DNA of 64,000 bases from Tubulanus polymorphus (Eukaryota; Animalia; Nemertea). The notes below the pieces were generated by a model, which was not told where the DNA came from, searched no databases, and saw only the letters and a program-made list of their open reading frames with translations. The translations under genes and the position numbers were made by a program. The stretch is taken from the NCBI RefSeq assembly GCF_964204645.1, contig NC_134031.1, positions 9,548,001 through 9,612,000 of the forward strand. Direction: 5' to 3'. This document shows, piece by piece, positions 1,519 to 41,597 of this stretch (its first letter is position 1; every line of letters begins with the position of its first letter).

Positions 1519-2726
1519 TTATTAGGGGAAAAAATTACTTGTGGTGATGAGTGGTGTCATACTAGTTAGCGTCCGAAAATGTCAACGTCGGTGATACCTT
1601 GTTATCGTCGATATTTAACGCGGGAACGGTCCAAAGTCAGTTTATACACCACATACATTTCAAATTGGAGGTCCCTTGTACATGTACATCACATCGTGAC
1701 GCAGCGGCGATGGTAATGTCATAGAAGAACAAAGTCAGTTGAAAATACCTACCCACTGCACCGATAAAGAATGATTGCTAGCCAGAGACCAGTGACAGGC
1801 AGTAACGGGGAGTGATGACTGAAACAGTTTACACTTCTATGATAATGCGAAAACAAACGCCGCGGTTATAAACCGGCTTTCTTGAATTTTGAAACCGGAA
1901 TGCATAAATATGATACAACGCACACAAAGACTGATAAAATAGCCTTTCTCAAATTATCCTCCAAACTGTTCACAACCACGCTAATGTGAACCTACCGAAC
2001 CAATGAGAGGCTAAATAATGTCCAGCCCCCGAACTTCCTTGAACAAAAAATAATAAAGTATATGTTCCATATAAAAAATATGATGTCTTTTATTATCATA
2101 ATACTCTGTCTTAATATGAAATAATAACACAGATTAGCCTGTGTAACCAAAGACAGTAGAAACGAAGATGGAACAGGTGGGGCTCCACGCACTCCGACGT
2201 GAACTATGTAGCGTTGCGTACATAGGGATTTAGGTCAATTTCTTGGATGTTACTATGAATTAGGCGTTATGCGTTTTCCGATTCGGTGTTTTTCATTAGG
2301 CGTTTTTCGAATACCGAGTGATGGTACCGTTCGTGAGTATGTTTTTATAATGGTTATTGGACGTCAATTTCATATGTGAATTGTAGTCCCCATCTGATCG
2401 CCTAATTGGTCGCTCAATTGGTCGCTCCACTTCGCTACCGCTCCGCTCCGCGACCAATTGATTTAATTACAATACACAAATTCAAATAATCAAATATATT
2501 CAAATGATAATAATTATTCTATTATTCAACTGAAATGCACGCGGTTATGAAAATATATTATAGTTTTTTAATTACTTTTAATATATGTTATTAATGAACT
2601 CGATCATTAAACCTTTGATATGAAAGCCCATTACCCCTATTACTCTTAAAATATTCATATATATATGAATAACATTTAAATCATTGAACTTCTAAAATCA
2701 ATTTTAATAAAAAATATAGTATTAAA

Positions 2727-2891
2727 ATGGAAGCAAATAAGTACTACTGCCCAACATGTAATATCGATATAGATAAATCCCAAAAAGCAAGACACAATAA
2801 AACTAAAACACATTTAGAGAATGAATTGAAACTAGAATATTCACAGTTATATTCAGAACAGTTAACCAATAAGGGTAAAAAAATATTTTAA
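2727..2891 (+). pseudogene. 54-codon stub: PolB N-terminal zinc finger fused to the start of an HNH-protein tail
   Basis: MEANKYYCPTCNIDIDKSQKARHNKTKTHLENELKLEYSQLYSEQLT, nearly identical to ORF 41598..41849. Confidence 0.75.
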
Positions 2892-2961
2892 AGCGTAAGG
2901 TTTCAGCGAACTCTAACTCTTTTTGAATTTTAACCTATTTTAATAAAAATTTGATATATAA

Positions 2962-5238
2962 ATGTGCACAAGATTAATTAAAGTTCCCGCGAAAGACATG
3001 AGTAATAAATATATAAATTCAATATTATATTATTTAACTGTTAACAATAATTTAGCAGATATTTCAGGAGTAAATATAAATAAGTATTATAAATCTGAAA
3101 ATAATGAATTAATTGAAACATCAGATATATTTTGCGATAATATAATGCTATATAAAATCATGTTAGAAAAAGAAATTATAAAAGAAAATAGAACAACTTT
3201 TCTAAACGTTAATCAGAGAAAGATAACACATTATGAAATTAAAGAATGTTTTAATCAAGGAGATATTATATTGGATAACTTAGCTATAAAAATTACACGT
3301 GTTTTAACAATTCATGATGATAATTCAAAATCATATATATTAAGTAGAATTAATCAAGAATTAAAATTAACAGATTATATTGCTGTATTTAAAATTTCAT
3401 TATGCAATCAAAATTTAAATGAATTAATACAGAAAATGGATAATATTGAAAAATTATTAAATGAAAAAAATTACAATATATTAGATGTAGATGTGACACA
3501 AGATTTTAAAGGATCATTTAATTCAGATGAAATAAAATCAATGTTCGAAAATAGAAAATATAAAGTTCTAAAAGAATTTTCCAATAGTTGTGTTTCAGCA
3601 TTACATAAGGATGATAAAATAAAGATCTATAATAAAACAGCATGTCAATTCAAATCTCCTGGTGTAAATATAAATTTCGGTTCAAATTTAATGAGTTACA
3701 TAAATTGCTATCAAGAGAGGTTAAAAGAATCATTTGAAAAATCAATTGAAACAGGATTAATTAGAATTGAAATAACAAGTATTTCATTTAAAAGAGGATT
3801 AAAAGTGATGGAAAAAATAAAACAATACTTAAAAAAAGAAAATATTTACTATCCACCTACATATTTACAACTTAAATCATTATTTGATGAGGTTCAACAG
3901 ACTGTATGTATTTATGATTTGATTGAAAAATGCTTTTATTTCTGTTATTATGGTGATTTATTAGCAAGGAAATTTATAGGATATAAATCTAGGATAAGTA
4001 AAAATATTGAAGAGTCCTCCTTTTTACTTATTTTATCAATGTTTACAATTAAGAATATCCCATGTTTATACCTAACAATTAATCAAAATGATGATAAATC
4101 AGAATTCATTATTGAAGCAAAAAAATATATTAAAACTGAAGGAGCAACTGTTATATCTTCAACTAATTCAATGTTTACAGTATTGAATAAATTTATATTT
4201 AGATTTAAATTACGTGAAACAGGAATTAGTTTTACAACTTTAAAAAAGAGATACAATATAAAATCTAAACCTTTTTATAAATTAGATGCACTTGATATTG
4301 AAGAAGATTTTGATTTAAAATTATTATCTAAAAGTGAATTTAAAAAGTTAGAAGAAATGAAAGAACTTAAACAATTACAAGAAGATATAGATGAAAATAG
4401 AAATAAAATTTGTAATGAATTAAAGCAACAATTAGATATTGATAATGAATTATTTGAGACAGAATTCAAAAAACTTGAAATAATTCCTGAAGTAAAATTA
4501 AATGATTATACTCCTAAAATATCTGGAATTGACAATAATACAATTTTTGAAATTAGAGGTTTTTCAACTCAATGTAAATGTATAACAGATCTTTATTTCA
4601 GTTATATTTTAACAGATCAAGGCTTTTATGAAACTACTACTGATTTAAGAGAATTATTGATAAAAACATTACAATTAGACGTATTAAATAATAATTATTT
4701 TGAATTGTCTTCGATAGAAAAAATCATCAAAAAGTTAAAAATAGGCGTTCATAGCCCTGATAGACACTTTATTTTATCAAAATTAGAAAAACCTATTTTC
4801 CAAGTAAAGAAGATAACACACGATCATTTTGAAATAATTGATAAAATGGATTTTGAATTGATGAAAAAATATACTGAATATTTAAAGATAAATTCTAATG
4901 ATTTCATAAATGTATGTGATATACGTAAAGAATCTGATTATTTAAGAAAAATGAAACTTAACAATATGAAAATTAAGCAATGCGAGCGTTTAGAACTATT
5001 GAAAGATAATTCTGAATATAATATTGATTTCATTAATCCTAGATATTTTAGAAATAAATTGCGCCATCTAATTTTAATTCATAATGATGAAAATATTTAC
5101 ATATCAAATGAATTTTTCGATAAAGAAATGATCAAGAATAATATAACAGAATATCAGGTGATAAAATTGATTACGCACAAGCAAAAATATAATTCTCAGC
5201 GGCATAAAGAATTAGTAGTTAGTTTAATTGTTATTTGA
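2962..5238 (+). CDS. 758-aa protein, putative Rep_trans/gpII-like tyrosine nicking replication initiator
   Basis: Uninterrupted ORF with TAAATG start; motifs in Rep_trans order: ILDNLAI (D105), DVDVTQDF (D177/D181), KIKIYNK (Y223), LIRIEIT (R268/E270). Family assignment by eye only. Confidence 0.6.
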   Translation: MCTRLIKVPAKDMSNKYINSILYYLTVNNNLADISGVNINKYYKSENNELIETSDIFCDNIMLYKIMLEKEIIKENRTTFLNVNQRKITHYEIKECFNQGDIILDNLAIKITRVLTIHDDNSKSYILSRINQELKLTDYIAVFKISLCNQNLNELIQKMDNIEKLLNEKNYNILDVDVTQDFKGSFNSDEIKSMFENRKYKVLKEFSNSCVSALHKDDKIKIYNKTACQFKSPGVNINFGSNLMSYINCYQERLKESFEKSIETGLIRIEITSISFKRGLKVMEKIKQYLKKENIYYPPTYLQLKSLFDEVQQTVCIYDLIEKCFYFCYYGDLLARKFIGYKSRISKNIEESSFLLILSMFTIKNIPCLYLTINQNDDKSEFIIEAKKYIKTEGATVISSTNSMFTVLNKFIFRFKLRETGISFTTLKKRYNIKSKPFYKLDALDIEEDFDLKLLSKSEFKKLEEMKELKQLQEDIDENRNKICNELKQQLDIDNELFETEFKKLEIIPEVKLNDYTPKISGIDNNTIFEIRGFSTQCKCITDLYFSYILTDQGFYETTTDLRELLIKTLQLDVLNNNYFELSSIEKIIKKLKIGVHSPDRHFILSKLEKPIFQVKKITHDHFEIIDKMDFELMKKYTEYLKINSNDFINVCDIRKESDYLRKMKLNNMKIKQCERLELLKDNSEYNIDFINPRYFRNKLRHLILIHNDENIYISNEFFDKEMIKNNITEYQVIKLITHKQKYNSQRHKELVVSLIVI

Positions 5239-5295
5239 ATTGAAACATATAAATATTTAACATTTTATAAACTGTTAAATTTTTCTCTTAAATAA

Positions 5296-5496
5296 ATGGA
5301 TGGTTTCATCCCAACTGGGAAAAGTGATTTGAAACATTATCTTGTAGCAGGAGGATTAATATTGGCTGCGCTTTATTTATACTATGAGAATATTAGTAAG
5401 GATTTGATGAATGAAAATATAAAATTGAGCAAGAAATTGAAAAAATTAAATGGAAATAAAAATAATCATAAAAAAGTTATTGAATCAGATTACTGA
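5296..5496 (+). CDS. Small single-TM protein with coiled-coil tail (mirror copy at 8743..8940, - strand)
   Basis: TAAATG start preceded by T-run; hydrophobic YLVAGGLILAALYLYY. Confidence 0.6.
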   Translation: MDGFIPTGKSDLKHYLVAGGLILAALYLYYENISKDLMNENIKLSKKLKKLNGNKNNHKKVIESDY

Positions 5497-5513
5497 ATTA
5501 ATTAAATAAATAA

Positions 5514-5816
5514 ATGAGTGAAAATATATTAAACTTATTACATCTAATATATAAAAATCAACAGAATATTAAATCAATTATTATGCTTACAGGTTTATTT
5601 TCTTTTTCAATTTATAGTATAAAACAGTTGTTAGAATTCTATGATTGCTGTAAAATTAGATACACTGAATTAATAGAAAATATGAATTATATTTCAGATA
5701 GATTGAATAATATTAAGTGTTGTGAAATTTGTAATAAAAGATATAAAAATGATAAATCATTAAGGAATCATAAATATATTCATGAGCTTAACAATAAACT
5801 GTATAATTCAAATTAA
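5514..5816 (+). CDS. 100-aa protein with hydrophobic segment and C-terminal C2H2 zinc finger (mirror copy at 8420..8722, - strand)
   Basis: TAAATG start; CEICNKRYKNDKSLRNHKYIH. Confidence 0.65.
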   Translation: MSENILNLLHLIYKNQQNIKSIIMLTGLFSFSIYSIKQLLEFYDCCKIRYTELIENMNYISDRLNNIKCCEICNKRYKNDKSLRNHKYIHELNNKLYNSN

Positions 5817-5836
5817 GATATATAATATTTAGATTA

Positions 5837-6508
5837 ATACCCCCTTATGTCTTCATTGTCTTTAGTAGTCTTAGTACTTTTAGTACATAAAGAATAAATC
5901 TTTATTTTATTAGTAGTTGAAAAAAATAGAACTACTAAACTACTAAGGAGATAAAGACCCAGTTTAAATAATAATATTTATTTATCACATAGATTTATTA
6001 TATATTATTGTTTCAAAATAATAAATATCATAGATTTATTAAATATTACTGTTTCAGTAATGATAAATCTTTGTCTTTATTGTCTTTAGTAGTTTAGTAG
6101 TTTTGAAAATAATTTTATTCAGTAAGAATAATATAAATATTTATTCTTTATGTACTAAAAGTACTAAAACTACTAAAGACAATAAAGACACAAACCAACC
6201 AACACACATAGATTCATCATATATATTTGATTCAGTAATGAATATCATATATTTATTATATAAATTTGATTCAATAATGATAAATATAGTATTTATTTAT
6301 CTCACAGATTTATTATATATTACTGTTTCAATAATGATAAATATCATAGATTTATTACATATTACTTTTTCAGTAATAATATTTATTCATCTCACATATT
6401 TATTATATATGTTTTTATATTTTTTTTCAACTACTAATAAAATAAAGATTTATTCTTTATGTACTAAAAGTACTAAAAGTACTAAAGACATAAAGACACA
6501 AGGGGTAT
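5837..6508. repeat. Internal inverted-repeat module (ATACCCCTT...AAGGGGTAT) shared with Polinton B
   Basis: ~90-bp inverted arms plus internal copies of TACTAAAAGTACTAAA; homologous to 36033-36612; mirrored at ~7728-8399. Confidence 0.85.
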
Positions 6509-8419
6509 TATATTCATATTCATATTAATATTCATATTTATTCTTATATCAAATAAAAGAGGCACATTTTCATATTCTTTAGCCAATATATTTTATATAT
6601 TCAGCAAATATATTTTATATTTCCAACACTGGAAAAGTATAAATCATATTCAATTATATATTTACTTTTATCATTAATAAAAGAGGATTACAATGAACCC
6701 GCTAGATTGTTTAACTGTTTAAGTATTAAATTGTGTACATTGTATATTCATAAACTAAATGAAATAAATCACGAATAAGACTTTTAAATTAGCTGAAATG
6801 TATGAAATATTGTATGAAATATTAGTTAACCCAATAAGGGGGTTGAGGTATCAATGTATCAAATACGTATTAATGTATTAAATACATATATTATGCTTTA
6901 TCTTTTAAATTTAAGTCACAGAAGTAATTTATGTTTTAATTTATTCAAATATGTTGTTAAATTTCTTTACATAAACTAAAATAATACAAGATGATACTAA
7001 CTTATTCAAGGTAAAGTTTTTCTAGTATTATTCTAGTCAAATGTAAAGAAATGTAAAGTAAACAAGAATTGAATAGATTCAATAAGAATTATAATAGGTT
7101 TCTTTAACTATAACTAAATAATACTAGCTTATTCAATTGTATTGTTTTTCTAATGTTTTTTATTCAATTATTGTTTACTTTACATTTCTTTACATTTGAC
7201 TAGAATAATACTAGAAAAACTTTACCTTGAATAAGTTAGTATCATCTTGTATTATTTTAGTTTATGTAAAGAAATTTAACAACATATTTGAATAAATTAA
7301 AACATAAATTACTTCTGTGACTTAAATTTAAAAGATAAAGCATAATATATGTATTTAATACATTAATACGTATTTGATACATTGATACCTCAACCCCCTT
7401 ATTGGGTTAACTAATATTTCATACAATATTTCATACATTTCAGCTAATTTAAAAGTCTTATTCGTGATTTATTTCATTTAGTTTATGAATATACAATGTA
7501 CACAATTTAATACTTAAACAGTTAAACAATCTAGCGGGTTCATTGTAATCCTCTTTTATTAATGATAAAAGTAAATATATAATTGAATATGATTTATACT
7601 TTTCCAGTGTTGGAAATATAAAATATATTTGCTGAATATATAAAATATATTGGCTAAAGAATATGAAAATGTGCCTCTTTTATTTGATATAAAAATAAAT
7701 ATGAATATTAATATGAATATGAATATAATACCCCTTGTGTCTTTATGTCTTTAGTACTTTTAGTACTTTTAGTACATAAAGAATAAATCTTTATTTTATT
7801 AGTAGTTGAAAAAAAATATAAAAACATATATAATAAATATGTGAGATGAATAAATATTATTACTGAAAAAGTAATATGTAATAAATCTATGATATTTATC
7901 ATTATTGAAACAGTAATATATAATAAATCTGTGAGATAAATAAATACTATATTTATCATTATTGAATCAAATTTATATAATAAATATATGATATTCATTA
8001 CTGAATCAAATATATATGATGAATCTATGTGTGTTGGTTGGTTTGTGTCTTTATTGTCTTTAGTAGTTTTAGTACTTTTAGTACATAAAGAATAAATATT
8101 TATATTATTCTTACTGAATAAAATTATTTTCAAAACTACTAAACTACTAAAGACAATAAAGACAAAGATTTATCATTACTGAAACAGTAATATTTAATAA
8201 ATCTATGATATTTATTATTTTGAAACAATAATATATAATAAATCTATGTGATAAATAAATATTATTATTTAAACTGGGTCTTTATCTCCTTAGTAGTTTA
8301 GTAGTTCTATTTTTTTCAACTACTAATAAAATAAAGATTTATTCTTTATGTACTAAAAGTACTAAGACTACTAAAGACAATGAAGACATAAGGGGGTATT
8401 AATCTAAATATTATATATC

Positions 8420-8722
8420 TTAATTTGAATTATACAGTTTATTGTTAAGCTCATGAATATATTTATGATTCCTTAATGATTTATCATTTTTATATCTTTT
8501 ATTACAAATTTCACAACACTTAATATTATTCAATCTATCTGAAATATAATTCATATTTTCTATTAATTCAGTGTATCTAATTTTACAGCAATCATAGAAT
8601 TCTAACAACTGTTTTATACTATAAATTGAAAAAGAAAATAAACCTGTAAGCATAATAATTGATTTAATATTCTGTTGATTTTTATATATTAGATGTAATA
8701 AGTTTAATATATTTTCACTCAT
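8420..8722 (-). CDS. Inverted duplicate of 5514..5816 zinc-finger protein
   Basis: Identical translation. Confidence 0.6.
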   Translation of the reverse strand: MSENILNLLHLIYKNQQNIKSIIMLTGLFSFSIYSIKQLLEFYDCCKIRYTELIENMNYISDRLNNIKCCEICNKRYKNDKSLRNHKYIHELNNKLYNSN

Positions 8723-8742
8723 TTATTTATTTAATTAATTCA

Positions 8743-8940
8743 CTAATCTGATTCAATAACTTTTTTATGATTATTTTTATTTCCATTTAATTTTTTCAAT
8801 TTCTTGCTCAATTTTATATTTTCATTCATCAAATCCTTACTAATATTCTCATAGTATAAATAAAGCGCAGCCAATATTAATCCTCCTGCTACAAGATAAT
8901 GTTTCAAATCACTTTTCCCAGTTGGGATGAAACCATCCAT
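8743..8940 (-). CDS. Inverted duplicate of 5296..5496
   Basis: Identical except the last codon (TAC changed to TAG). Confidence 0.55.
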   Translation of the reverse strand: MDGFIPTGKSDLKHYLVAGGLILAALYLYYENISKDLMNENIKLSKKLKKLNGNKNNHKKVIESD

Positions 8941-8959
8941 TTATTTAGGAGAAAATTTC

Positions 8960-9784
8960 AGCTGTCTTATCATTTCAACTGCCAAACAATTTATCATTTC
9001 AACTGCCAAACAATTTATCATTTCAACTGTTAAACAATTTATCATTTCAACTGTCAAACAATTTATCATTTCAACTGTTAAACAATTTATCATTTCAACT
9101 GTCTTATCATTTCAACAGTCGAACAATTTATCATTTCAACTGTCAAACAATTTATCATTTCAACTGTTAAACAATTTATCATTTCAACTGTTAATCAATT
9201 TATCATTTCAACTGTCAAACAATTTATCATTTCAACTGTCAAACAATTTATCACTTCAACTGTTAATCAATTTATCATTTCAACTGTTAAACAATTTATC
9301 ATTTCAACTGTCAAACAATTTATCATTTCAACTGTTAATCAATTTATCATTTCAACTGTCAAACAATTTATCATTTCAACTGTCAAACAATTTATCACTT
9401 CAACTGTTAATCAATTTATCATTTCAACTGTTAAACAATTTATCATTTCAACTGTCTTATCATTTCAACAGTCGAACAATTTATCATTTCAACTGTTAAA
9501 CAATTTAACATTTCAACTGTTAAACAATTTAACATTTCAACTGTTAAACAATTTATCATTTCAACTGTTAAACAATTTATCATTTCAACTGTCAAACAAT
9601 TTAACATTTCAACTGTTAAACAATTTAACATTTCAACTGTTAAACAATTTAACATTTCAACTGTCAAACAATTTATCATTTCAACTGTTAAACAATTTAA
9701 CATTTCAACTGTTAAACAATTTATCATTTCAACTGTTAAACAATTTAACATTTCAACTGTTAAACAATTTATCATTTTAACAGT
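8960..9784. repeat. 24-bp minisatellite (TTTATCATTTCAACTGTTAAACAA, >30 units)
   Basis: Directly visible tandem array with minor variants. Confidence 0.97.
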
Positions 9785-9837
9785 CTATTAGATATTTAAA
9801 TCTTTTAACTCAATTCAATAATTATAATGTAGAATTG

Positions 9838-10488
9838 TTACTCTTTACGCCAGTTTTTATGTTTAATTGTTTCATAATGCTTTGATTTATGTGATTTTAA
9901 ATATTTACCTCCGCAATAACAATGCACTTTTTCATTAGGATTGAATTTTCTAAATTCATCATCTAATTTACATTGAACTGCAATATCTTTATAAGAATTA
10001 TTATTATCTAATTCACATTGAATTCCAATATTTGATGAATTTTCATTATAGATAATTTGTTTATTATCAAAATTGAAATAATACAATTGTCTTTTTTCAA
10101 TTCTTAAGTTAATCAAATCATTGTAATCTTTTGAAAGTATTATATCATCATTTCTTTCATTGAAAGGAGTTTTAAGAATATTAATTATGTTTTCATCTAA
10201 AGTTCCTTTAAAATTCAAAACTGTATTGAATATTTTAGGATTTTTAACGCCATTATCAAAAGTATCTACTAGTTCAGTAATTAAATATGTTTCATTTGAT
10301 AATATTTGATTAATCATAGTTATGTTATCGATTTTATAATACCTTGCGGACACTAAATTTGTTGCTGAAATATAATTTTTAATGTAAAACTGTGAAAATG
10401 ATTTATTGGTTTCATTGATTTCGATTTTAAAGTTGGGTTCTTCTTCTTCTTTCTTCATTTTTATAACAAAACTTTTATTAAAACTCAT
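9838..10488 (-). CDS. 216-aa protein with C-terminal virus-type zinc finger
   Basis: Intact ORF; VHCYCGGKYLKSHKSKHYETIKH; starts just inside the right terminus. Confidence 0.7.
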   Translation of the reverse strand: MSFNKSFVIKMKKEEEEPNFKIEINETNKSFSQFYIKNYISATNLVSARYYKIDNITMINQILSNETYLITELVDTFDNGVKNPKIFNTVLNFKGTLDENIINILKTPFNERNDDIILSKDYNDLINLRIEKRQLYYFNFDNKQIIYNENSSNIGIQCELDNNNSYKDIAVQCKLDDEFRKFNPNEKVHCYCGGKYLKSHKSKHYETIKHKNWRKE

Positions 10489-10608
10489 TCAAATATAAAT
10501 ATTCGATGTTTTAAATATGAATTATTTCACTCATACTTTTATATTGAATAATCTATCAATTTATATGTTATTCATATATATTTTATTCATGTATATGATT
10601 ATTTTAAG

Positions 10609-10950
10609 AGTAATAGGGGTAATGGGCTTTCATATCAAAGGTTGAAGGGGCGAGTGAGTAAAAAATGAAAAATATGAAAATAATAACAATTTCTACTTGA
10701 ATTAGGAGTGAAACTCATAAAAAATTAAAAATAATTCTCACACGCTCGAATTTATTTCACTCACACTTTACTCACACTTTTTTCTAGCGAGTAAAAATGA
10801 AAAATAAATTCGAGTGTGTGAGAATTGTTTTTCATTTTTTATGAGTTTCGCGACTAATTCAAGTAGAAATTGTTATTATTTTCATATTTTTCATTTTTTA
10901 TGAGCTCGACCTTTCGACCTTTGGTATGAAAGCCCATTACCCCTATTACT
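10609..10950. repeat. 342-bp terminal hairpin with two inverted copies of the conserved loop motif
   Basis: AGTAATAGGGGTAATGGGCTTTCAT...ATGAAAGCCCATTACCCCTATTACT; AATTCTCACACGCTCGAATT at ~10734 and its inverse at ~10806. Confidence 0.95.
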
Positions 10951-13477
10951 CTTATTCTATGGGCTGAGGTTCGAATCTAATCAACAACTCGTACTCCTAG
11001 AATCAAAATATCCTCAAGTTATCATTACTTAAAATGATTCGTATGCTTCGCTAGCGTTCGCAGTACACTTTGAAGGGATTACTGTCGATCATCTAGTGCT
11101 CAGTAGAAATAGTAAAATCGATATATGTTTTTCTTAATCAAGATGAGAATCATCGATAAATTCAATTTGGAAGGGCTAGATTTTTATGTGGCGGATTAGT
11201 TCCCGTTACCTGGATAGACTCACGCTTATAAATCAACAACCATGTTAACGCGTCATCTTACTTGATAAATACATATTCAAATAATATCAGATTGCAAAGA
11301 CCTGCAATGGGCTCGATAACTAAATTATGTCTATTAATGTATATCGTGTATTATTAATCTATAAATACAATGTTTGAATTTGAAGGTCAGTATTTGCCTA
11401 AAGATGTTCATTGCACATTTTAGATATCATCGTTTTTGATAGTGTGGTTTTTTCTATTTTCTCGAAAGACATGAAACAAAATGTAGATATGTATTCGGAT
11501 TTTCGTAGGTCCATTTTAATTGCATAGCAGAGTACCGAATATTAGATCCCGTTGACTATTGACCTCCTCAGTTGTTTTTGTTATAGCGAGCCCATGGTGC
11601 AACTATGGCGATATCCTCTTGTTTTTGTATAAGGTAAAAGGCTTCAAATAGAAATGGCACAATTTATTTTGGGATGGATTAGAACTAAGCATTCTTGAGA
11701 GCACTTGAGAGCGGCTGAACGAGCAACCCTATTAGTTTATACAGTGAGACCATCACCTAAACTGTCTCCTATGCGATCTTTCTGTAGGTTCATTGGCATA
11801 GATTTATCAAATACTGGTTGGACCACATGAAAAAATAATTTCTTTACTATAATTTAGGGTGTAGGAGTCAGCACTCACACCCTATTTTTCATACACTAGT
11901 TTTCATTACCGATACCTTTAATCTGTGTCGCATTAGACTGATCGATTTCACTATTATGTTAACCGTAGCGTGCCTATATAGTCTATGTGTTAATATTAAC
12001 TTTCGGACTATTTATTCATTGAAAACGAGAGCAGAAAATACACAGTCAATATGGCTCAGTTATTTCAGAATTTCAAAGTAGGCCTATATATAATTATATA
12101 ATGCCGACACTAAAAGCCCCAGATCGTTGCTTGCTGGTGCAGGTTGAATGGAATTATTTACTGAACTGGAATTTCCTACTGGATGTTTTATATAAACTTA
12201 AATTTCAGTGAATCTGCGATAATCCATACATAGAATATTCGTTACCCCGAATTTTGACTTCAAAATCCGAGCCCGTAATTCAGTCCCGGCAGGAGTGGTG
12301 GGTTAGTAGGGACACACCAAATAAATAAGAGATGAACATAAGCTCTGAATAATGTTGAAGGTATTAAAATGATAACAAGATGATGACAGCGATTCCGATC
12401 TCAAAAGCCTATTTCAGGACTTTGAAACCCGTGAGGTTTGTTCCTATATCATATGCGTTGCCCGATTATGAGACCGATATCAGAAGATATTAAATGAGGA
12501 CTTATGAATCAGGCGTTAAAATCCATTTTTTCAAATACCATAAAGTTAATTCTTCAACTGGAGGTAACTCAACTGTTCCAAGACTGTTCTGACAAAAATT
12601 GTTCTGCTGGTACAAGTACATTTATTCATGTTCATGGTCAACGTCAATAGAACAAATAGCTCACTAATATCACTGCATCGTGTCAATGTGAAATGTTTCA
12701 CATATTATTTGATATATTTTCATGATATAGAATATCCATTCTATTTGTTTTGTTGTATGAAACCGGAACGTTCAATCATAAGTCCAATCTAATTGGCTCA
12801 TACTCATAACAATGATAATCATATCTAATTTAACTCATTGTGATCGAAACTCACTGAAAATATTATTTAGATAAAACGAAACTTGCTTAAACTAGTGGAT
12901 TAACATAGTGGATTTTCCATCTGAGTTCTATAAGGGTTTCTATTTTCGAGAAAATGAACAATTGAATCAAACGACCAATTGTAATTACTATACGAAAATT
13001 AAAATATCATTTGGTTTAATCTGATCACACCATTCTCGCATCAGAATACCACGAGCACCGGCTAAAACTATTAATCTAAATGTGATATTTCTTAGTGATG
13101 ACACAACTATTTCGAATCAGTTGCAATGCCGCCTACTACTGGCCTGAACTTTCGCATGGTTCGCTCTTTCTTCGAGACCATGCATTTGACCGCTGTAAAG
13201 ACTTTCTTTGTAGGCCTATACTAGAGCATTTTATTTATAATTCCGTAACATTAGGACATAAAGCTACATAGACCGATAGCGACCAGGCCATTCCGTCTAC
13301 CCGATAATACCTATTGCACATGGACACTTTAACGAACTTCAATAATACACGCACTATACATCACTGCTGGATATTAAGAACACTTAAAAGTCAGTGTATA
13401 CATTGAACATTCTCAGATTCAGATCTTAGGAAGAGAGTTCAAATATCCGAATAACCATAGAAGCGATAACATTAAAA

Positions 13478-15758: not shown

Positions 15759-16018
15759 TTAAAGTATTCGCACACAGAAAGGCTGATTGAGCCATGTGAT
15801 TAAATTTTGCACAGGCCTTGTCTGCTGACCTGACATTTATAGTCAGACCTAGATCCAAAACGTTCATATGATCACGGCTTTAATAAAAGAAAACAAGAAA
15901 TCATTATGTAGGCCTGTACATTTTGCTGTACGTAGGTTTGGTATACCGATTTCTCCAATCTCGACAGATGAGTGTACGGTACAGCTGAAAGCATTATACC
16001 AATGGGAATAGGGCCTAT

Positions 16019-17410
16019 TATGGTGGCTGATAAGGGCCATAGCGTAAAATTCCTGGTATGTAAATGAGGGCGCCAGAACGCCAGAACGCCAAAACGAAAA
16101 AAAACGTCCAATTTTCTCTAAAAGTTCGTTTTGGCGCGCCAAAACAAAGAAAATTCCGTTTTGGCGCCCCCGCCAAAACGAACTTTCATTTTGGCGCCCC
16201 CGCCAAAACGAACTTTCATTTTGGCGCCCCCGCCAAAACGAACTTTCGTTTTGGCGCCCCCGCCAAAACAACGAAAAACGTCCAATTTTCTCTAAAAGTT
16301 CGTTTTGGCGCGCCAAAACAAAGAAAATTCCGTTTTGGCGCCCCCGCCAAAACGAACTTTCATTTTGGCGCCCCCGCCAAAACGAACTTTCGTTTTGGCG
16401 CCCCCGCCAAAACAACGAAAAACGTCGAAATTTCTCTAAAAGTTCGTTTTGGCGCGCCAAAACGGAGAATATTCCGTTTTGGCGCCCCCGCCAAAACGAA
16501 CTTTCATTTTGGCGCCCCCGCCAAAACGAACTTTCGTTTTGGCGCCCCCGCCAAAACAACGAAAAACGTCGAAATTTCTCTGAAAGTTCGTTTTGGCGCG
16601 CCAAAACAAAGAAAAGTTCGTTTTGGCGCGGTTATTTCCGTTTTGGCGCCCCCGCCAAAACAAGCATTCAACCACAGTAAAATTATTTTTCAAATTGGCG
16701 CGTTGATCTTGTGTGTAATTTGCATAAATTTGCATAAATGAAAATATTTTACGTATATATAGAATTATTTTACGTGGTTTAAAGTTCGTATTGGCGGGGG
16801 CGCCAAAACGAAAGTTCGTTTTGGCGGGGGCGCCAAAACGGAATATTCGTTGTTTTGGCGCGCCAAAACGAACTTTCAGAGAAAATTGGACGTTTTTCGT
16901 TGTTTTGGCGGGGGCGCCAAAACGAAAGTTCGTTTTGGCGGGGGCGCCAAAATGAAAGTTCGTTTTGGCGGGGGCGCCAAAACGGAATATTCGTTGTTTT
17001 GGCGCGCCAAAACGAACTTTAAGAGAAAATTGGACGTTTTTCGTTGTTTTGGCGGGGGCGCCAAAACGAAAGTTCGTTTTGGCGGGGGCGCCAAAATGAA
17101 AGTTCGTTTTGGCGGGGGCGCCAAAACGGAATTGTCTTTGTTTTGGCGCGCCAAAACGAACTTTTAGAGAAAATTGGACGTTTTTCGTTGTTTTGGCGGG
17201 GGCGCCAAAACGAAAGTTCGTTTTGGCGGGGGCGCCAAAATGAAAGTTCGTTTTGGCGGGGGCGCCAAAACGGAATATTCGTTGTTTTGGCGCGCCAAAA
17301 CGAACTTTTAGAGAAAATTGGACGTTTTTTTTCGTTTTGGCGTTCTGGCGTTCTGGCGCCCTCATTTACATACCAGGAATTTTACGCTATGGCCCTTATC
17401 AGCCACCATA
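16019..17410. mobile_element. Foldback element, ~640-bp TIRs built from ~31-bp GGCGCCCCCGCCAAAA subrepeats, 6-bp TSD GCCTAT
   Basis: TATGGTGGCTGATAAGGGCC...GGCCCTTATCAGCCACCATA; GCCTAT at 16013-16018 and 17411-17416. Confidence 0.9.
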
Positions 17411-20957: not shown

Positions 20958-21079
20958 AGTATATAGGAATAAGTTGTTTCATACCAAAGGTCGAAGGGTC
21001 GAAAAATAAATTCTCGCACGCTCGAATTTATTTTTCGACCCCTCAACCTTTGATATGAAACAACTTATTCCTATATACT
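20958..21079. repeat. 122-bp terminal hairpin of Polinton A
   Basis: AGTATATAGGAATAAGTTGTTTCAT...AATTCTCGCACGCTCGAATT...ATGAAACAACTTATTCCTATATACT. Confidence 0.95.
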
Positions 21080-24197: not shown

Positions 24198-24360
24198 AGT
24201 AATAGGGAATATGTTGTTTCAGATCAAAGGTCGAACGGTCGAGTTCATTAAAAACAAAACATTAAAAGTAATTTAAAACTATAATATATTTTCATAACCG
24301 TGTGCATTTTATATTAAAACTAAATATTTATTCTAAGATATCAATAATTTAAAAAGCATA

Positions 24361-27300
24361 ACGAATGAAAAAGAAATATATAAATGTGATACATGTGATC
24401 AATCATTCAGTAACAAAAGTTATTATAAAGAACATTTAAAATCTAAAAGTCATATTAGAAATAAGAATAATGATATTTTAGGTGAAGATTATTTTGATAA
24501 AGATAATGATAAGAAACAGAAGACAATTAAAAGCATAAAAAATAAATTAAACAATAAAAGACCATACATGGAAGATGTAAGAAATTAAATTAATTCATTA
24601 GATAATCAAAAAGATATTGAGATAACCGAAGCATTTAAAAGTGATATTGGCCCAGCAGCTATCGAGTTTAAAATTCATAAAGGAAAAACATTAGAAGAAA
24701 ATAAAAAACATTTAGAAAATATGAAAGAAATAATAAAAATAATAACTGATGTTGAATATCCTAAAATTAGTATATCAGTTAACAGTAAAATTTATAAAAT
24801 CTGAAGATAAACCAATATATAATATAAATTCTCATTCACAACATATTATATCTAAACAACATATAGATGATAAATTAGATAAATGTTATAATGAAGTAAA
24901 AACTAAAATAGAAGAGAAATATTTTGAAGGATCTGGTTTAATATTTGATGAAATAATATTTATGACTTTACATGTTTATAACACAAAATACAATAAGTTA
25001 ACTAAATCGAAACCAATTGATGAAAATAATGTATCATTTTATAAAGATGATAATATAAATGGATCAAGTTATATCAAATGTACAAAATTCTGATGATAAA
25101 TGTTTTCTATGGTCAATAATTAGTTGCTTACATCCTGCAACTTATAATATTTGTAGATTAACTCATTATAAACCATTTGAAAATAATTATAAGATAGATA
25201 AGTATCCTGTTAGAATTAAAAACATCCCAAAGATAGAAAGAGATAATAATATAAAGATAAATGTATTTGATTTAATCAAATTACCAAATACAAAAGGTAA
25301 CAATGTAAAACATTATACATTAGAACCTTTATACCTATCAAAAGATTATGATTCAAACGATGTTATAGTTATACTATATTATGAGAATCATTATATGTGG
25401 ATTAAAAGAATTGATTTATTTTTTAAATCAGAAAATGATTTTGATAATAAAATATATCTATGTAGAAAATGTTTACATAGATTCAGTAATGAAAGTGCAT
25501 TAAATCATAAACAATTATGTGAAAATCATTGTAAATTAGTTTTACCAAATGAAAGGGATAAAATATTAGAATTCAAAAAATATGATTACAAAAATAAAGT
25601 ACCATTTGTTATATATGGAGATTTTGAAACATTAAATAAAGAACTAACTGATCAAGATAGAAAAGAAATATATTATAAAAGAAAGAATTTAAATTCTAAT
25701 GAAAATGATTTTTCAGATGAACCACCAATAACAAATACTATTAAAAAGATTCATCAATCAGGTGCAGCTTTCGGATTATATATAAAATCTGATTATCCAG
25801 AACTAATTGAAAGTGAATATTATCATTACAGAAATGAAAATGTTATCAATCATTTTTGTGACTTATTAATTGAATATGAAATAAGATTTAGTAAATTATT
25901 GAATACAAATATAGAAATTATAATGACAGAAGAAGATAAAGAAGAATTTGCGTTTGCAGATAAATGTTATTATTGTGAAAAGATATTTAATTATAAAGAT
26001 AAAAAAGTAAGAGACCATGATCATTTGAATGGAAAGTTTAGAGGCGCTGCACATGAGAATTGTAACTTACAAGCTAAGAAAATTAACTTTGTACCAGTTA
26101 TTTTTCATAATCTATCAGGATATGATGCACATTTATTCATCAAACAGTTATGCCATAAAATAGAAGAAATTAATAATGAAATAGAAAGATTAAATTCAAA
26201 TAGATCAAAAGATAAAATACCAACTTATAAATTTAGAATGTTAGCTAAAACATCTGAGAATTATATATCATTCCAATTTGGTTGCCTAAGATTTATAGAT
26301 TCATATAGATTTTTAAATAGTTCATTAGATAACTTACCAAAATCATTAGTTGATGATGAATTAAAGATATTAAGAGAATATTACCCAAATAATGATGATT
26401 TTCAATTAATGAGATATAAAGGCGCAATTCCATATTCATTTTATAAATCACATAATGATTTCAATATAACTGAATTATTAAAAGAACAATTTTATGATGA
26501 ATTAAAAAATGAATATGTTAAAGATGAAGTATATAATAGAACATTGAATATTTGGAATCATTTCAAAATAGAAAATCATGGACAATTAGTAGATTAATAT
26601 CTAAAATCAGATGTATTATTATTAACCGATATATTCGAAAGGTTTAGAGATGTAAACCTAAAATATTTTAACATTGATCCTTGTCATTGTTATTCATCAC
26701 CAGGATTAACATGGGATTGTGGATTAAAATTTACAGATATAAAAATGGATGTGTTAACAAATATAGATCAATTACTATTATTTGAAAAATCTATAAGAGG
26801 AGGTGTTTCAGGTGTATTAGGTGATAGATATTTCAATGTAAATGATAACCCTGGATATAAGTTATTATATATAGATGCAAATAATTTGTATGGTTGGGCA
26901 ATGATGGAACCACAACTTTATTGAGTATTTGAAATAAGTGAAGTTTTACAACATGAAAATAATGATAAATTTGATTGGAAGAAAAGAATCATAGATATTG
27001 CAGATGATTCAGATACTGGTTACTTTTTTGTTGTAGATTTAGAATATCCTGAACATACTAAATTTAAATCTAGAAATCTAGCATACTGTCCAGAACATAA
27101 AACTGTAACACATGAAGAATTATCAAATTATCAAAAAAGAATTAAACCCGAAAATCATATTCATACAGAAAAGTTAATGGTAACTCAAGAAGATAAATAT
27201 AATTATGTAGTACATTATAGAATGTTATAGAATGTTAAAGTTTTATCTAAAACAAGGAATGATTCTAAAAAAAGTACATAGATATATTTCATTCAGTCAA

Positions 27301-27956
27301 TCTAAGTGGTTAGAAAAATATATAGATTTTAACACCAAACAGAGAACTGAAGCTAAAACTGATTTCGAAAAAGATTTCTTTAAGTTAATGAACAATGCAT
27401 TCTATGGTAAGACTTGTGAAAATATTAGAAATAGAAATGATATTGAGTTAGTTAGTAATGGTAAAAGAATTAGACATTTACAAACATATCCTAAGTTTTT
27501 AGGTAACAGAATATTTGATGAAAATTTAGCTGCAGTTAAGATGAGAAGAACATCAATGAAATTTAATAAACCAATCTATGTTGGCGCATCAGTTTTAGAA
27601 TTATCAAAATTACTAATGTATGAATTCTATTATAATGTATTACAACCACTTTTTGGAGAAAAACATCTAAAATGTATTCATATAAAACTAAAGAACATGA
27701 AGCTAAAAAGTTAAAAGGAATAACCAAAAATGTAGTAGAAAAGAATATTTATTTCAAAGATTACATCAATTGTATATTCAATGAAGAAGTTAGAAAACAT
27801 AAGATGAGATGTTTAAGATCTGAAGATCATGAAATGTTTATTGAAGAAATTGAAAAGATAAGTCTAAACCCATTTGATGATAAAAGATATATTTTAGATG
27901 ATGGAATTCATACAGTTGCTTATGGTTGCAATTTAGATGAATACTTAAAATTTTAA
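24361..27956 (+). pseudogene. Polinton family-B DNA polymerase with inserted Endonuclease VII/HNH-like domain; stops, frameshifts, motif C region deleted
   Basis: YGDFE, CYYC...VRDHDHLNGKFRGAAHENCNL, FHNLSGYDAH, YIDANNLYGWAM, KLMNNAFYGKT; YxDTDS (present in copy D) missing at ~27665. Confidence 0.95.
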
Positions 27957-28036
27957 ACAGAAGAAACAAAAGAGAACGAGAAAATGAAAAGAATTCTAAC
28001 GTGTTAATCAAATTTTAATAAAAATATGTATTATAA

Positions 28037-28392
28037 ATGGAGAGTAAACAAGTACACAGTGAGAACAACAAATCATTTCTAGATAGAATAAAAGATACTT
28101 CAAATGTCAAATCAGTAGATTATAAATTTAAGAAGTTAAAAGAATTAACAATCCATAAGAAATATCTGATTACAAATATTGATACAGTTACTAATAACTA
28201 TGGAGATAAATTAGTTATACACTTAGAATATGAAGGATTAAAAAGGAAATACATATCGATTCAGAACATATTTACTGGATAGATTTCATAGATGATCAAG
28301 TGAAGATTTAGAAGAATTATGTTCTGGAGATTTCTATTTCGTATACAAAGGTTAGAATGAAAAAAGGGCATCATGAAATAGATTTCGAATAA
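28037..28392 (+). pseudogene. Small protein, possibly OB-fold ssDNA-binding
   Basis: TNNYGDKLVIHLE...FRTYL motif; homologues at 50215(-), 51270 and 56345; function is inference. Confidence 0.45.
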
Positions 28393-28406
28393 AATATGTG
28401 AAATAA

Positions 28407-29168
28407 ATGGTGGAATTAAAAGAATACAGAATATTTGTTGATTCTAGAAGGCTTACAAATTATAAATCACATAATTTACTAGTACAATTAGATAGAGAAT
28501 TCAAGAATTGTGTAGATTTAAAATTAGTTTATATAAGTTTATGTAATTCTTTTTATAATATATCGGATAAAACTATTGAACATAGAGCCTTTTTAATTTT
28601 TGATAAAGGTAAAAATGAATGGTCCTATATATATATATTTAAAACCGGGGATATATAATTTAGAAACATTAGCACAAGAAATTAATAGAAAAGCCTGGCA
28701 CAAATTAGGTAGTAGTTCTGGGTTTAGTATTAGATTTTTAAAAAGTGATAGTTCTGATATAATAAAGATAAGGTCTAATAGTGAAAAACATAAATTTATG
28801 GTAAAAAACCTATAGCTAAACTGTTAGGAATTCTTCCAGATAGATCTTTTAAAAATATTGATGCTGTTACACCAAACTTAATACCTTACACACATTTTCA
28901 TATTTATTGCAATTTAATCGATCCTACAAAAACATTCGAAGCAACTAAAGATATAACTTGTAATTCTGGTTTATTAAACATTTTACCATTGAAGAATGTT
29001 AAAGAATTTGGAACGCAAATAAATTATAATTTAACAGAATGTGATTTCAAACCATGCATTCCTAAATTTAATAATTTTAAATTAAAAATAAGAAATCATA
29101 ATGGATATTTAATTGATTTGAATAACTTTCCTGTGATATATGAATTAGTTATAAGATTTAAAGAGTAA
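28407..29168 (+). pseudogene. Minor capsid (penton) protein
   Basis: IFVDSR...VQLDREF..SFYNI..LKPGIYN..KLLGI..HIYCNLID..IRNHNGYLIDLNNFPVIYELVI pattern; frameshifts at ~28630 and ~28808. Confidence 0.75.
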
Positions 29169-29183
29169 TTTTTTCACTATATA

Positions 29184-29525
29184 AATGAATATAACTGTTG
29201 GACCGAGTATATGTTTTGGGTTTGATTTTAAACATGGTAAAGAAATGAGAATTAAACTAAATGATGTAATACTGATATAAAAAGTAAATCATTTAACAAT
29301 GCATCAATGATTAATAAAGAAAATTATAATATAGAAAGAGTAATTGATTTAATTAAATCACCTTTAGAATATTATGAATTAAATGAAGATGGAATTATTG
29401 ATGATATTAAAAACATATTAACCGAAATATATGATAATCATAAAAGTAGTAATGAAATAAATGTTGAATTAATCATCACTAAGATAACTAAATATTTTGA
29501 TGATAGTAATTTTTTTGATAAATAA
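29184..29525 (+). pseudogene. Polinton protein of unknown function
   Basis: MNITVGPSICFG start, homologue at 46470. Confidence 0.6.
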
Positions 29526-29747
29526 ATGAGTGATAATAAGTGGATAATAACTGGATTATATAATGGAGCATTACTATCAGTTGGAACTGTTGGTTATTCA
29601 ATGGTATTAAAAAAAGTATTCAAAATGGGAAGTGTTAATGTTGATAGATTTGATATAAATGATATTTTAAAATTAACATTAGCAGTTACTTTATCTAATT
29701 TAACTAATGATTATTTGGAAAAACAAAAATATATTCCTCCCATATAA
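29526..29747 (+). CDS. 73-aa hydrophobic protein (putative virion membrane protein)
   Basis: Near-identical copy at 46821..47042; two hydrophobic helices. Confidence 0.75.
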   Translation: MSDNKWIITGLYNGALLSVGTVGYSMVLKKVFKMGSVNVDRFDINDILKLTLAVTLSNLTNDYLEKQKYIPPI

Positions 29748-29771
29748 ATGCATATTTTTTTTGTTAAATAA

Positions 29772-30194
29772 ATGGCTTCTGCAATTATAACTATTATAGG
29801 ATCGGCAATTGTTAACGCTTTAGCATTTACTGGTGGTGAATATTTATTTAAACATATTGATAAAAATAGTTCATTAGGAGAACAAAGAAGACATAACTTA
29901 GCATTAGAGAAATATAATAAAGCAGCTGAAGAATATAGAGAAAAGAGACAAAACTATATGGATTACATTAATAAAGAATTATATGATCAGAAGATTTCAC
30001 ATAGAGATTTTCAATCAGTTGATGATGCAATGAGTTTATATTACGCGGTAACCAATAAAGAAAAATTACATCTATACAAACCTAAATTATCAGATTATTA
30101 TACACCAAGTAAAGAACAACAGAAATATGAAATAATATGGATTTTAGGCGGAACTGTTATTGTTATATTTTTAGCATATAAATTTACTAATTAG
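29772..30194 (+). CDS. 140-aa protein with hydrophobic termini and central coiled coil
   Basis: MASAIITIIGSAIVNALAFTGG...EQRRHNLALEKY; homologue at 47067. Confidence 0.75.
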   Translation: MASAIITIIGSAIVNALAFTGGEYLFKHIDKNSSLGEQRRHNLALEKYNKAAEEYREKRQNYMDYINKELYDQKISHRDFQSVDDAMSLYYAVTNKEKLHLYKPKLSDYYTPSKEQQKYEIIWILGGTVIVIFLAYKFTN

Positions 30195-30213
30195 TAATTT
30201 CTTTTCTAAATAA

Positions 30214-30643
30214 ATGGATGATAAAGTTGATAATATTGATATTATTCCTCATGATATAAATAAAACTAAACTAAAAACATATTTAGAAAAACAAATATTA
30301 GAATTTGAAAATGATTTAAAAGTTAAAAAGAAAAAATATTTAAAAAGTAAAATTATATATTATCTTATTATCAGTGGTTCGGTTACAATTAGTAATAACA
30401 TTTCTAGCAATATTCAGTCCATTAACACCTTTAGCTATATCAATTGGCGTATTAGGATTAAGTTCAAGTGTTTTAACCGGTATAAGTTCAAAATTAAATA
30501 TAAAAAGTAATAAAGAAAAAATTAAAACTAATATAAAAGAAATTAATAAATTAAAGAATACACTAGATTATATAATAAGTTTAAATGGCCATATAACAGT
30601 TGAAGAACAAGATAAATTATCAAAAGAATTAGTTAATTATTAA
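30214..30643 (+). pseudogene. Two-TM coiled-coil protein (frameshifted)
   Basis: Overlapping ORFs 30214..30510 and 30374..30643; homologue at ~47509. Confidence 0.65.
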
Positions 30644-30659
30644 TTTTTTAATTATATAA

Positions 30660-32048
30660 ATGGCAGATAGTTTTCCAAAAGCTTTCCAATATAATAAATC
30701 AATTAAATATAATATTCCTGCAATAGATTTTAATAAAGATATTACATATAGAAATGAAGTTTTAGATTCATTAACTAATTTAGAAATTTATGTTACTGAA
30801 ACTAATAATTTTAATGCAAAGATGGAAAATATATTTCATGTATATTTAATTAATTTTAAAAAATTGAAAGATGAAAAACAGTGGTTATTAAAATCTAATA
30901 TGAAGTATTGGCAGAACCAATTAAATTTTGCTGTTTATTGCGCAACAACAGGTTGTGGAATTAGTTGGAATGATCATTTGAATAATTCTAAATATAAATT
31001 AATTCAAAGTTTATTTAGATTTCATACATACTTTCAAATCAGAATAATATTAAATGAATTAGAGTGCGCTTTACCAGGATCTAGATATTTTAAAGAATTA
31101 GATAATAATATTAATTTATCAAAGTTTTATAAAATTTGCAATGAATTTAATATAGATATAAATAATTCTGATTTTAGAAAAAAAATTGGAACAATAAGAT
31201 CACTTCCTTGCCCTAAAAAGATTGCAGAATATTGTGCACTTCCCATACCATCTAATAGTTTTTATAATATCTATAATATTAAATTAGGTTATGGTAAAAT
31301 AGAAACAAAGGATTTAGAAACATTAAATTTCAATAAATTACCGACATTTTATGATAATTTAAAACAAGAAAACAATAATGGTTGGGTTTATTTCATTTTA
31401 GAAAATAGTGAAGGTTTTACTAAATCAGGTATACAAAGAATAAATCAATCTATTAGAACTTATTTGATATGTATTTTAGGTGCACAAGTTGAAACAAGAT
31501 CCCCAATAATTGGAAATTTAAATACATCATTTGATACACAAAAACAATTTAAAGTTTTATTTGAAGATTCCATTCATAATGATAAAAATAGATCGATTCC
31601 GGAAAACATTGTAAGATATCAAAATTATTTAGATAAATCACATATTAGATTAAATTATTGTATAGGCCCTAATCTATTAATTATTTCTAATGATTTAGTA
31701 TTAAAGATGGGAAACATAATTGGTTACAATAATCTAATTAAAACTGCAACAATAAATAATTCATTTGGATTGAATGATATAAATAAAAAGATTATCACTG
31801 CCCCAAAATTAATGGAAGGTGAAAAAAATAAAAAACATATTCAATCAACAGAAACTAAAACTAATAATATTAAATTAAATAATGATTCTAAAATAAAAGA
31901 TTACAATACATCAGAAAATATTAAAACTGATAATATTCAACATGAAATAATTAAACTAAATGATGATAATAAATCCCATGAAAATACTAAATTAGCTATA
32001 ACTTGTATAGGAATTGTAATCGGAGGAATATTATATTTTAAATTTTAA
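30660..32048 (+). CDS. 462-aa conserved Polinton protein with C-terminal TM anchor, function unknown
   Basis: WQNQLNFAVYCATTGCGIS; homologue at ~47850-48740. Confidence 0.8.
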   Translation: MADSFPKAFQYNKSIKYNIPAIDFNKDITYRNEVLDSLTNLEIYVTETNNFNAKMENIFHVYLINFKKLKDEKQWLLKSNMKYWQNQLNFAVYCATTGCGISWNDHLNNSKYKLIQSLFRFHTYFQIRIILNELECALPGSRYFKELDNNINLSKFYKICNEFNIDINNSDFRKKIGTIRSLPCPKKIAEYCALPIPSNSFYNIYNIKLGYGKIETKDLETLNFNKLPTFYDNLKQENNNGWVYFILENSEGFTKSGIQRINQSIRTYLICILGAQVETRSPIIGNLNTSFDTQKQFKVLFEDSIHNDKNRSIPENIVRYQNYLDKSHIRLNYCIGPNLLIISNDLVLKMGNIIGYNNLIKTATINNSFGLNDINKKIITAPKLMEGEKNKKHIQSTETKTNNIKLNNDSKIKDYNTSENIKTDNIQHEIIKLNDDNKSHENTKLAITCIGIVIGGILYFKF

Positions 32049-32064
32049 TTTTTGTATTATGTAA

Positions 32065-33514: not shown

Positions 33515-33534
33515 TTAATTTTTTTGTTAAATAA

Positions 33535-34782: not shown

Positions 34783-34831
34783 GTGTTATGAAATATTAAA
34801 ATTTTAACTTTAATAAAAAATCTTATATTAA

Positions 34832-35686: not shown

Positions 35687-36032
35687 AATTTAAAAATATA
35701 GATTTTTTAACAGAATTGAAAAAAGTTGCTGCTAATGATAATATAAGTGATAACTTTGATGAAATAATTCAATACTACAGTTATGAAGATTTTTCACAGG
35801 ATGTTATAAATAAAATAAGAAATGATGCAAAAAGTAAACATAAAAATATAAGTGAAGACAAATTAAACCAATATATTTATTTAACTTATGAATTGTTTGC
35901 TAAGGGTTTGAATGCGGTTGATGGTTATCATACTAAACTATTAGGTGAAAGAAGATCACAAGAATTAAAAGATGCATGGCTCAAATTGTTTTCAGAATTA
36001 GAATCAGAAAAGTAATTTAAAATATGAATATA

Positions 36033-36612: not shown

Positions 36613-36669
36613 CAGGTATTAGGGTATCTAATAGGGTATCTAATACATAGATATATAAATAGTTATTTT

Positions 36670-38364: not shown

Positions 38365-38371
38365 CTTATTT

Positions 38372-39324: not shown

Positions 39325-39570
39325 TTATATTAGAGAAAAAAAGCAAAAAAAATATTATAAGTACTATAAAATGATACTAGTATCTCTTTGGGTTAATACT
39401 AGTTAGTTAAAGGTAAAGAATTTTAGTATTAGTTATTGTTTTTTTAGTATTTTTTATTTGTGATATAAAGTATTCTTTTTTGAAAAGAAAATATTAAAAA
39501 TATAATAGAATTCACTAGCTAGTTGAAGTTATTTTTTTTTAAATATTTTTTATTTAAAATCTATTATTCT

Positions 39571-41520: not shown

Positions 41521-41597
41521 GGCGTCATAGTAACGGCTGTAACAGCTGTGAATTTATAGATTTATTCCATAGCTCTGTACATGGAATGTATATAGGT

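Follow-up and report, generated by a model that had tools for sequence, protein, structure and literature searches.

In a 64,000-nucleotide stretch of the genome of the nemertean Tubulanus polymorphus (NCBI RefSeq assembly GCF_964204645.1, contig NC_134031.1, positions 9,548,001 to 9,612,000 of the forward strand; the whole stretch is called the window below), the segment 2404–10950 carries Polinton-type sequence around one long uninterrupted gene, whose product resembles the Rep_trans replication initiators and is here called Rep. We read this segment as a core-less, Polinton-derived element with an intact gene for a Rep_trans-fold nickase, in which Rep would nick one of the element hairpins and insertion would depend on a borrowed Polinton integrase; the chances of this reading being right appear roughly even. 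Independently of the satellite idea, it is quite probable that the protein family is a eukaryotic branch of Rep_trans-like nickases residing in inverted-repeat elements, and a life as a Polinton satellite is plausible for this copy. A preliminary description, made from the sequence alone, had proposed both a Rep_trans-like nickase and a Polinton satellite. The former is upheld below, while the latter was not shown, with one complete terminus, no target-site duplication (TSD) and 16 related loci free of Polinton genes and ends.

The Rep gene (2962–5238, + strand) is an intact open reading frame (ORF) of 758 aa, as described before, and is present in a single copy in the window. A family profile built from nine relatives led to 704 representatives (clustered at 50% identity), 415 of them at E ≤ 1e-10; the 150 matches listed out of the 704 were examined, and residue counts were taken from an alignment of 156 sequences. 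The catalytic domain (approximately aa 51–296) contains D59, D177, D181, K221, Y223, K225, R268 and E270. Conservation of Y223, on which the preliminary description had staked its assignment, is nearly complete (154/156), and the flanking lysines are kept to a similar extent (K225, 155/156; K221, 152/155), as are D177 (152/153), D181 (151/153), R268 (148/154) and E270 (148/152). The conserved first acid is D59 (126/129), and D59, D177, Y223 and E270 occur together in 118 of the 125 sequences that cover them. Of the four ordered motifs listed earlier, three (DVDVTQDF, KIYNK and IRIEI) are there and almost invariant across the family, but ILDNL is not conserved: its D105 is Asp in just 4 of the 46 rows with a residue there, and D59 replaces it as the first predicted metal ligand. 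In RepD, according to the available text of PMC4797284, the metal ligands are D46, D142 and E214, the nucleophile is Y191, and R140, D146 and R212 are conserved; the same DxxxD, RxYNK and RxE strings occur in pT181 RepC. By analogy, D59, D177 and E270 are predicted metal ligands and Y223 the predicted catalytic tyrosine, like D46, D142, E214 and Y191 of RepD. D177 and Y223 fall in register with Rep_trans in the profile comparisons, and the equivalence of D59 and E270 is based on their order and on the ends of aligned ranges.

The model of Rep aa 1–440 is of high quality (predicted local distance difference test 94, predicted template modelling score 0.91), and the fold predicted for the catalytic domain is like that of TATA-binding protein (TBP). 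Foldseek, which had been suggested as a check for a Rep_trans-like fold, placed staphylococcal RepD(E) first in the PDB with both models (E ~2e-3, probability 0.95–0.98) and an inovirus G2P initiator first in BFVD (E 4.6e-5); the scores are modest. Neighbours in the ESM Atlas at 0.92–0.94 included Rep_trans and Phage_CRI clusters. In VIA the longest alignments were those with Rep proteins, and the ends of the aligned ranges fit a pairing of D59 with D9/D46 and of E270 with E214. Of 100 bona fide Rep_trans proteins, the family profile matched 10 at E<0.01, with the DxD..YxK segment as the matching region and a best score of 18.4 bits, vs 0 matches and at most 5.7 bits for reversed and 10 shuffled controls. 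HHalign against 63 Rep_trans sequences gave E 0.02 in the correct register, a result that did not stand above controls in trimmed reruns. Fold, residue conservation and the controlled profile test agree on a Rep_trans-like tyrosine nickase. Rep is Rep_trans-like by prediction, yet not a member of PF02486.

The right end of the element (10609–10950) is complete: a 342-bp AGT..ACT fold-back palindrome with a conserved-loop stem-loop that recurs at 21014, 51123 and 56180. At 10950, 1,764 reads from an independent sample depart from the reference into unrelated flanks (agreement 0.34); the element here ends in a genuine Polinton terminus of high copy number. In reads the palindrome comes in many lengths. 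Several Polinton ends in the window (20958–21079, 51061–51202, 56115–56251, 10609–10950 and 41929–42331) likewise fold back as palindromes, and their conserved loop is of two types; at four Polinton ends of the window, a stem bears a conserved loop of 10 nt.

The left end (2414–2869, + strand) is truncated and comprises a GC-loop stem-loop (2414–2459), the inner arm of a terminal inverted repeat (TIR) up to 2644, a promoter and the start of a zinc-finger stub. These 456 bp show 92.5% identity to 41707–42158 in reverse complement, a subterminal part of the right end of a second Polinton in the window (Polinton B, or element B), and the match takes in both the GC-loop stem-loop and the zinc-finger stub, which bears out the earlier observation that the left ~470 bp are the inverse of the right end of B, stub included. 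The 54-aa stub (2727–2891, + strand), delimited by tblastn of window peptides and with a weak zf-U1 match (E 0.003), is found at the right end of Polinton B and also ahead of PolB in other copies. At 2414, 611 reads from another sample run on leftward into what is, by eye, the missing outer arm. A TIR signature absent from Polinton B is common to the inner arm on the left and the two arms on the right, so that 2414–10950 is probably one element.

No trace of PolB, integrase or ATPase was found in 2404–10950 by tblastn with the Polinton core peptides of the window, consistent with the earlier description, and six-frame peptides of the remaining window match the segment just at its ends, at the zinc-finger stub and at an inverted-repeat module. 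A Polinton-type promoter motif precedes the Rep gene (by eye), and GC content is 19–25% in the element, Rep gene included, as in Polintons, vs 33–35% in the flanks. The satellite reading draws on the TIR signature common to both ends, this Polinton-like GC content, the promoter motif and variant copies of the gene that differ mostly by synonymous changes.

In a raw-read run, Rep was covered 22–37x, a 216-aa ORF of the element (ORF216) 310–420x, a PolB piece ~560x and the ends 1,085–1,430x. Contigs over the Rep gene included identical and ~90%-identical types. Among the listed variant sites of the ORF, 7 of 12 were synonymous and none introduced a stop, where 18–26% would be expected (p 0.002–0.018); the 12 sites are the best-supported subset of rows, with alleles and paralogues mixed. 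Because of its depth and the mostly synonymous variants, Rep is apparently a selected, low-copy gene and not a standard Polinton gene. In short contigs and reads, Rep occurs in variant copies and the palindrome centre recurs, without a link from Rep to both ends. The depth ratio of Rep (2962–5238) to flank (11276–12000) was ~2 in run X1 and ~0.3 in X5, a shift that could reflect copy-number variation or free copies, contig depths being a poor measure.

The organism was named for 2 of 30 family clusters looked up: a ctenophore, Pleurobrachia bachei, and a ciliate, Tetrahymena utriculariae. No relative was found in two phage searches, one plasmid search and six viral-contig scans, the pattern scans being insensitive and absence therefore unproven. 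One GTDB scan gave a single match, on a 1.4-kb contig (L016) in an alphaproteobacterial bin, which was not counted as a bacterial member since the contig is too short to place. Sixteen related loci amount to 52.6 kb, mostly on contigs of 1.4–5 kb. At one locus a Rep remnant adjoins Ig-domain and long interspersed nuclear element (LINE)-type endonuclease sequence; at another (L012) part of the Rep 3' end is repeated in inverted orientation (1–147 and 3182–3328), beside small ORFs that include a RING-finger gene. One clade of the family resides in long-TIR elements, represented by three metagenome contigs (L005, L002 and L004), in which cargo genes accompany a Rep-family gene, the Rep cassette is invertible and a repeated 220-nt motif carries a hairpin that retains its loop on a changing stem. 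The cassette of L002 and L004 is the same and lies inverted next to a terminus common to both, and both contigs end in short end-to-end junctions.

A number of observations weigh against our reading of the focal element. At the level of the protein, Pfam and PDB sequence searches with Rep gave no match; the gathering scores of PF02486 and PF05144 were reached by neither Rep, the nine alignment members nor 50 relatives; none of the 50 relatives (0/50) had a nuclease-family Pfam match; and Pfam found no helicase domain in the Rep family. Position 175, which takes the place of Rep_trans R140, is occupied by Asp in 119 of 152 sequences, and Arg is outside the five commonest residues there; R140 of the RxDxAxD motif is described as strictly conserved in Rep_trans in the available text of PMC4797284. 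Profile-profile scores were 19–26 vs up to 22 for shuffled and reversed controls, and trimmed reruns did not rise above the controls. VIA Z-scores lay in a range that the tool calls common and were higher for TBP (7.5–8.1) than for RepDE/RepSTK1 (5.4–6.2, root-mean-square deviation 5.4–6.3, 156–171 residues aligned), and viral TBP-like transcription factors were also among the BFVD matches. These last two results would suit a TBP-like DNA-binding or transcription factor with no nickase activity, an explanation that we regard as very unlikely given the near-invariant D, D, Y and E on strands in RepD order, the controlled profile match to Rep_trans that spans the catalytic segment, and the first rank of Rep proteins in Foldseek searches of both PDB and BFVD. 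No HUH-family Pfam match was found for Rep or the 50 relatives, and no DUF7845 match among the latter.

At the level of the element, Polintons typically have TIRs at both ends that start with AG(T), together with a 6-bp TSD, as seen in element B. The left end of the focal element begins at the hairpin (2414), without the outer arm (42159–42331 in B) and without an AGT start, and the 6 bp that follow 10950 were not found in 1500–2660. Of the Polinton-type termini claimed earlier, the right one thus holds and the left one does not, and the idea of AGT..ACT hairpin ends with a 6-bp TSD around this copy has to be dropped. Relative to Rep, ORF216 is ~10-fold and the termini are ~30–65-fold commoner, which fits a rare chimera as well, and the mixed nature of the variant sites limits what they say about selection. 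The 16 related loci had no match to the Polinton peptides of the window, nor to Polinton ends beyond short AT-rich stretches.

The related loci favour another explanation, in which an independent eukaryotic family of Rep elements with its own ends or origins, a non-HUH counterpart of Replitrons, contributed this copy by insertion into, or recombination with, a decayed Polinton, the Polinton ends being incidental. In addition to the lack of Polinton genes at these loci, L005 is a 9.5-kb contig (1–9506) between 1-kb inverted repeats that carries Rep alongside cargo genes and in which neither an integrase nor a polymerase was recognised, and many family contigs are 3–3.5 kb long around a single ORF. 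L002 and L005 together have six copies of a stem-loop in which the loop is kept on two different stems that still pair at 10–11 of 11 positions; a conserved loop on changing stems is as expected of a nick site and offers a lead to one. The window itself is a cluster of nested, truncated, AT-rich Polinton pieces, in which such a copy could have been caught. An independent origin is harder to reconcile with the promoter motif ahead of Rep and the Polinton-like GC content, with the TIR signature shared by both ends, and with the lack of any observed terminal repeat or TSD that would mark off the Rep gene by itself. We hold it to be the main rival explanation and a possible one, on balance doubtful, with the accessory-gene (see below) and TBP-factor explanations less likely.

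The interior of the focal element has two features that were absent from the preliminary description, a 3.7-kb palindrome (5271–8965) and a 24-bp tandem array. The arms of the palindrome measure 1.83 kb and differ by 2 substitutions between 5289 and 7065. Its left arm (5271–7096, + strand) contains a 66-aa ORF (5296–5496, + strand), a 100-aa C2H2 zinc-finger ORF (5514–5816, + strand) and the Polinton inverted-repeat module (5835–6510, + strand), and the right arm (7140–8965, − strand) has mirror copies of the module and of both small ORFs. The earlier statement that the module is shared with element B was confirmed: 5835–6288 aligns with 36031–36482 at 74% over 487 columns. The fold-back centre (6960–7283) forms a local hairpin in DNA folding, and a shorter centre variant that joins 7050 to 7283 was found in X5 (9 reads), X1 and X2, that is in 3 of 4 runs from two studies. 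An assembly artefact is not favoured, as the fold-back centre occurs in three runs, with the proviso that the exact centre of the palindrome in the window and the identity of its arms could be influenced by assembly. Arms this nearly identical, as after a recent duplication, together with the truncated left end, would also fit a locus that is a one-off product of deletion and inverted duplication, Rep being an accessory gene of some complete Polintons; turnover of replicase modules in Polinton-like viruses is described in the available text of PMC11296320. Such an origin appears improbable to us, however, because the depth of Rep (22–37x) is far below that of PolB or the ends, no relative has an adjoining Polinton gene, and the fold-back centre recurs in other samples. 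Beyond the palindrome lie the tandem array (8967–9781, − strand, 34.5 copies), whose minus strand reads as octapeptide repeats, and ORF216 (9838–10488, − strand), which has a C-terminal Cys/His cluster and belongs to no family.

For the core-less Polinton derivative that we prefer, replication and spread may be pictured as follows. By analogy with known initiators, Rep would nick one of the element hairpins via Y223, forming a covalent 5'-phosphotyrosine and leaving a 3'-OH for a host polymerase. Host polymerases would then copy the element by strand displacement, with unwinding supplied by the host because the family lacks a helicase domain. Repeated fold-back (rolling-hairpin) copying could have given rise to the palindromes that lie nested at the right end and the centre. 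Chromosomal insertion would be carried out in trans by a Polinton integrase acting on the borrowed ends, and the product might be packaged in Polinton capsids, the weakest step of the scheme.

Downstream of its catalytic domain, Rep has a predicted long helix (aa 457–498) and a family-specific C-terminal module (aa 656–755). The C-terminal half gave no confident fold match, and aa 500–758 gave no usable match in the ESM Atlas. A small Polinton gene family at 56345–56686, 28006–28392 and 51261–51633, possibly with an OB-like fold, looks by eye like the module at the C-terminus of Rep relatives; homology of the Rep module to the gene at 56345–56686 was rejected, the hidden Markov model comparison being not significant (best E 0.13). 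In the contig of one run, 441 bp of the Rep gene (3934–4374, a multiple of three) are missing at full local depth.

Elsewhere in the window, Polinton B (24198–42331, + strand) shows AGT..ACT ends, and the 6-bp TSD with which it sits inside a gene of another Polinton is perfect; this host gene resumes after 42337. The core genes of B are interrupted, its PolB, integrase and ATPase frames being broken by stops or frame breaks in agreement with the preliminary description, and what we take from its motifs to be the capsid gene had no Pfam match. A high-copy repeat (1556–2401) separates the focal element from a PolB fragment on the minus strand; 506 bp of this repeat (1810–2315) are missing from many reads and are likely a nested insertion. 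A GC-richer array at 16000–17400 consists of 30- and 144-bp repeats laid out as a large inverted repeat.

Rep and its family share with Rep_trans (PF02486: pT181/pC221 RepC/RepD, RepSTK1) and with the inovirus gpII/G2P initiators (Phage_CRI, PF05144) a predicted TBP-like fold, the ordered D, DxxxD, (K/R)xYxK and RxE motifs, and a predicted catalytic tyrosine with three acidic metal ligands. Unlike them, the family lies below Pfam detection, has Asp in place of R140 and extends to ~800 aa with extra C-terminal modules, and its named members are eukaryotic and reside in inverted-repeat elements instead of small circular plasmids or phages. Rep-Arvir/DUF7845 (PF25227) is another remote offshoot of Rep_trans with the TBP fold, known as such chiefly from its structure, and Rep-Arvir acts at a hairpin origin; it differs in being archaeal and in having a KHYYM motif, where the present family has KxYNK, and a winged helix-turn-helix domain (available text of PMC13107129). 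As in Polintons/Mavericks (adintoviruses) and their non-autonomous derivatives, the focal element has an AGT..ACT terminal repeat, the promoter motif, the inverted-repeat module, convergent gene units and low GC content, but it has a nickase gene and no pPolB, integrase, ATPase or capsid gene, and it is set apart by its 3.7-kb internal palindrome, incomplete left end and lack of a TSD. Helitrons and Replitrons, too, are eukaryotic elements that rely on a tyrosine nickase of the rolling-circle type, and Replitrons equally lack a helicase; the enzymes of both have the unrelated HUH fold and the ends of both have short direct repeats or small hairpins, in contrast to the TBP-like fold and long inverted repeats found here (available text of bioRxiv 2022.12.15.520654).

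Rep_trans appeared restricted to bacteria until the archaeal branch Rep-Arvir was added (PMC13107129, 2026, in the text available). The eukaryotic Rep-mobilised transposons listed in the accessible portion of bioRxiv 2022.12.15.520654 use HUH nucleases, with Rep_trans unmentioned, and the available texts of PMC11296320, 10.64898/2026.10.13.758929 and 10.1101/2024.03.25.586562 do not mention it either. No description of a eukaryotic Rep_trans-fold element was found in the portions of the literature available to the search, which lay outside Repbase, subscription journals and supplements. It is likely that eukaryotes harbour a group of mobile elements, so far overlooked, that depend on this enzyme class, which has been described only in bacteria and archaea. 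A wider picture is put forward more tentatively and may well prove too broad: that inverted-repeat, hairpin-bearing elements with a Rep_trans-fold nickase are widespread and undescribed in eukaryotes, one lineage of which has here taken the place of the Polinton core and become a rolling-hairpin Polinton satellite that borrows integrase and capsid.

With candidate hairpin substrates and a Y223 control at hand, the proposed activity is directly testable in vitro, and the L005, L002 and L004 elements are the best system for finding the nick site. The satellite reading, if true, would give a Polinton parasite with its own replicase. With its Rep_trans-like active site intact and with named members from eukaryotes, a family of some 700 diverse clusters would bring the second rolling-circle chemistry into eukaryotes and define a group of mobile elements invisible to Pfam; if the eukaryotic class is real, the third domain of life would be completed for Rep_trans-fold enzymes.

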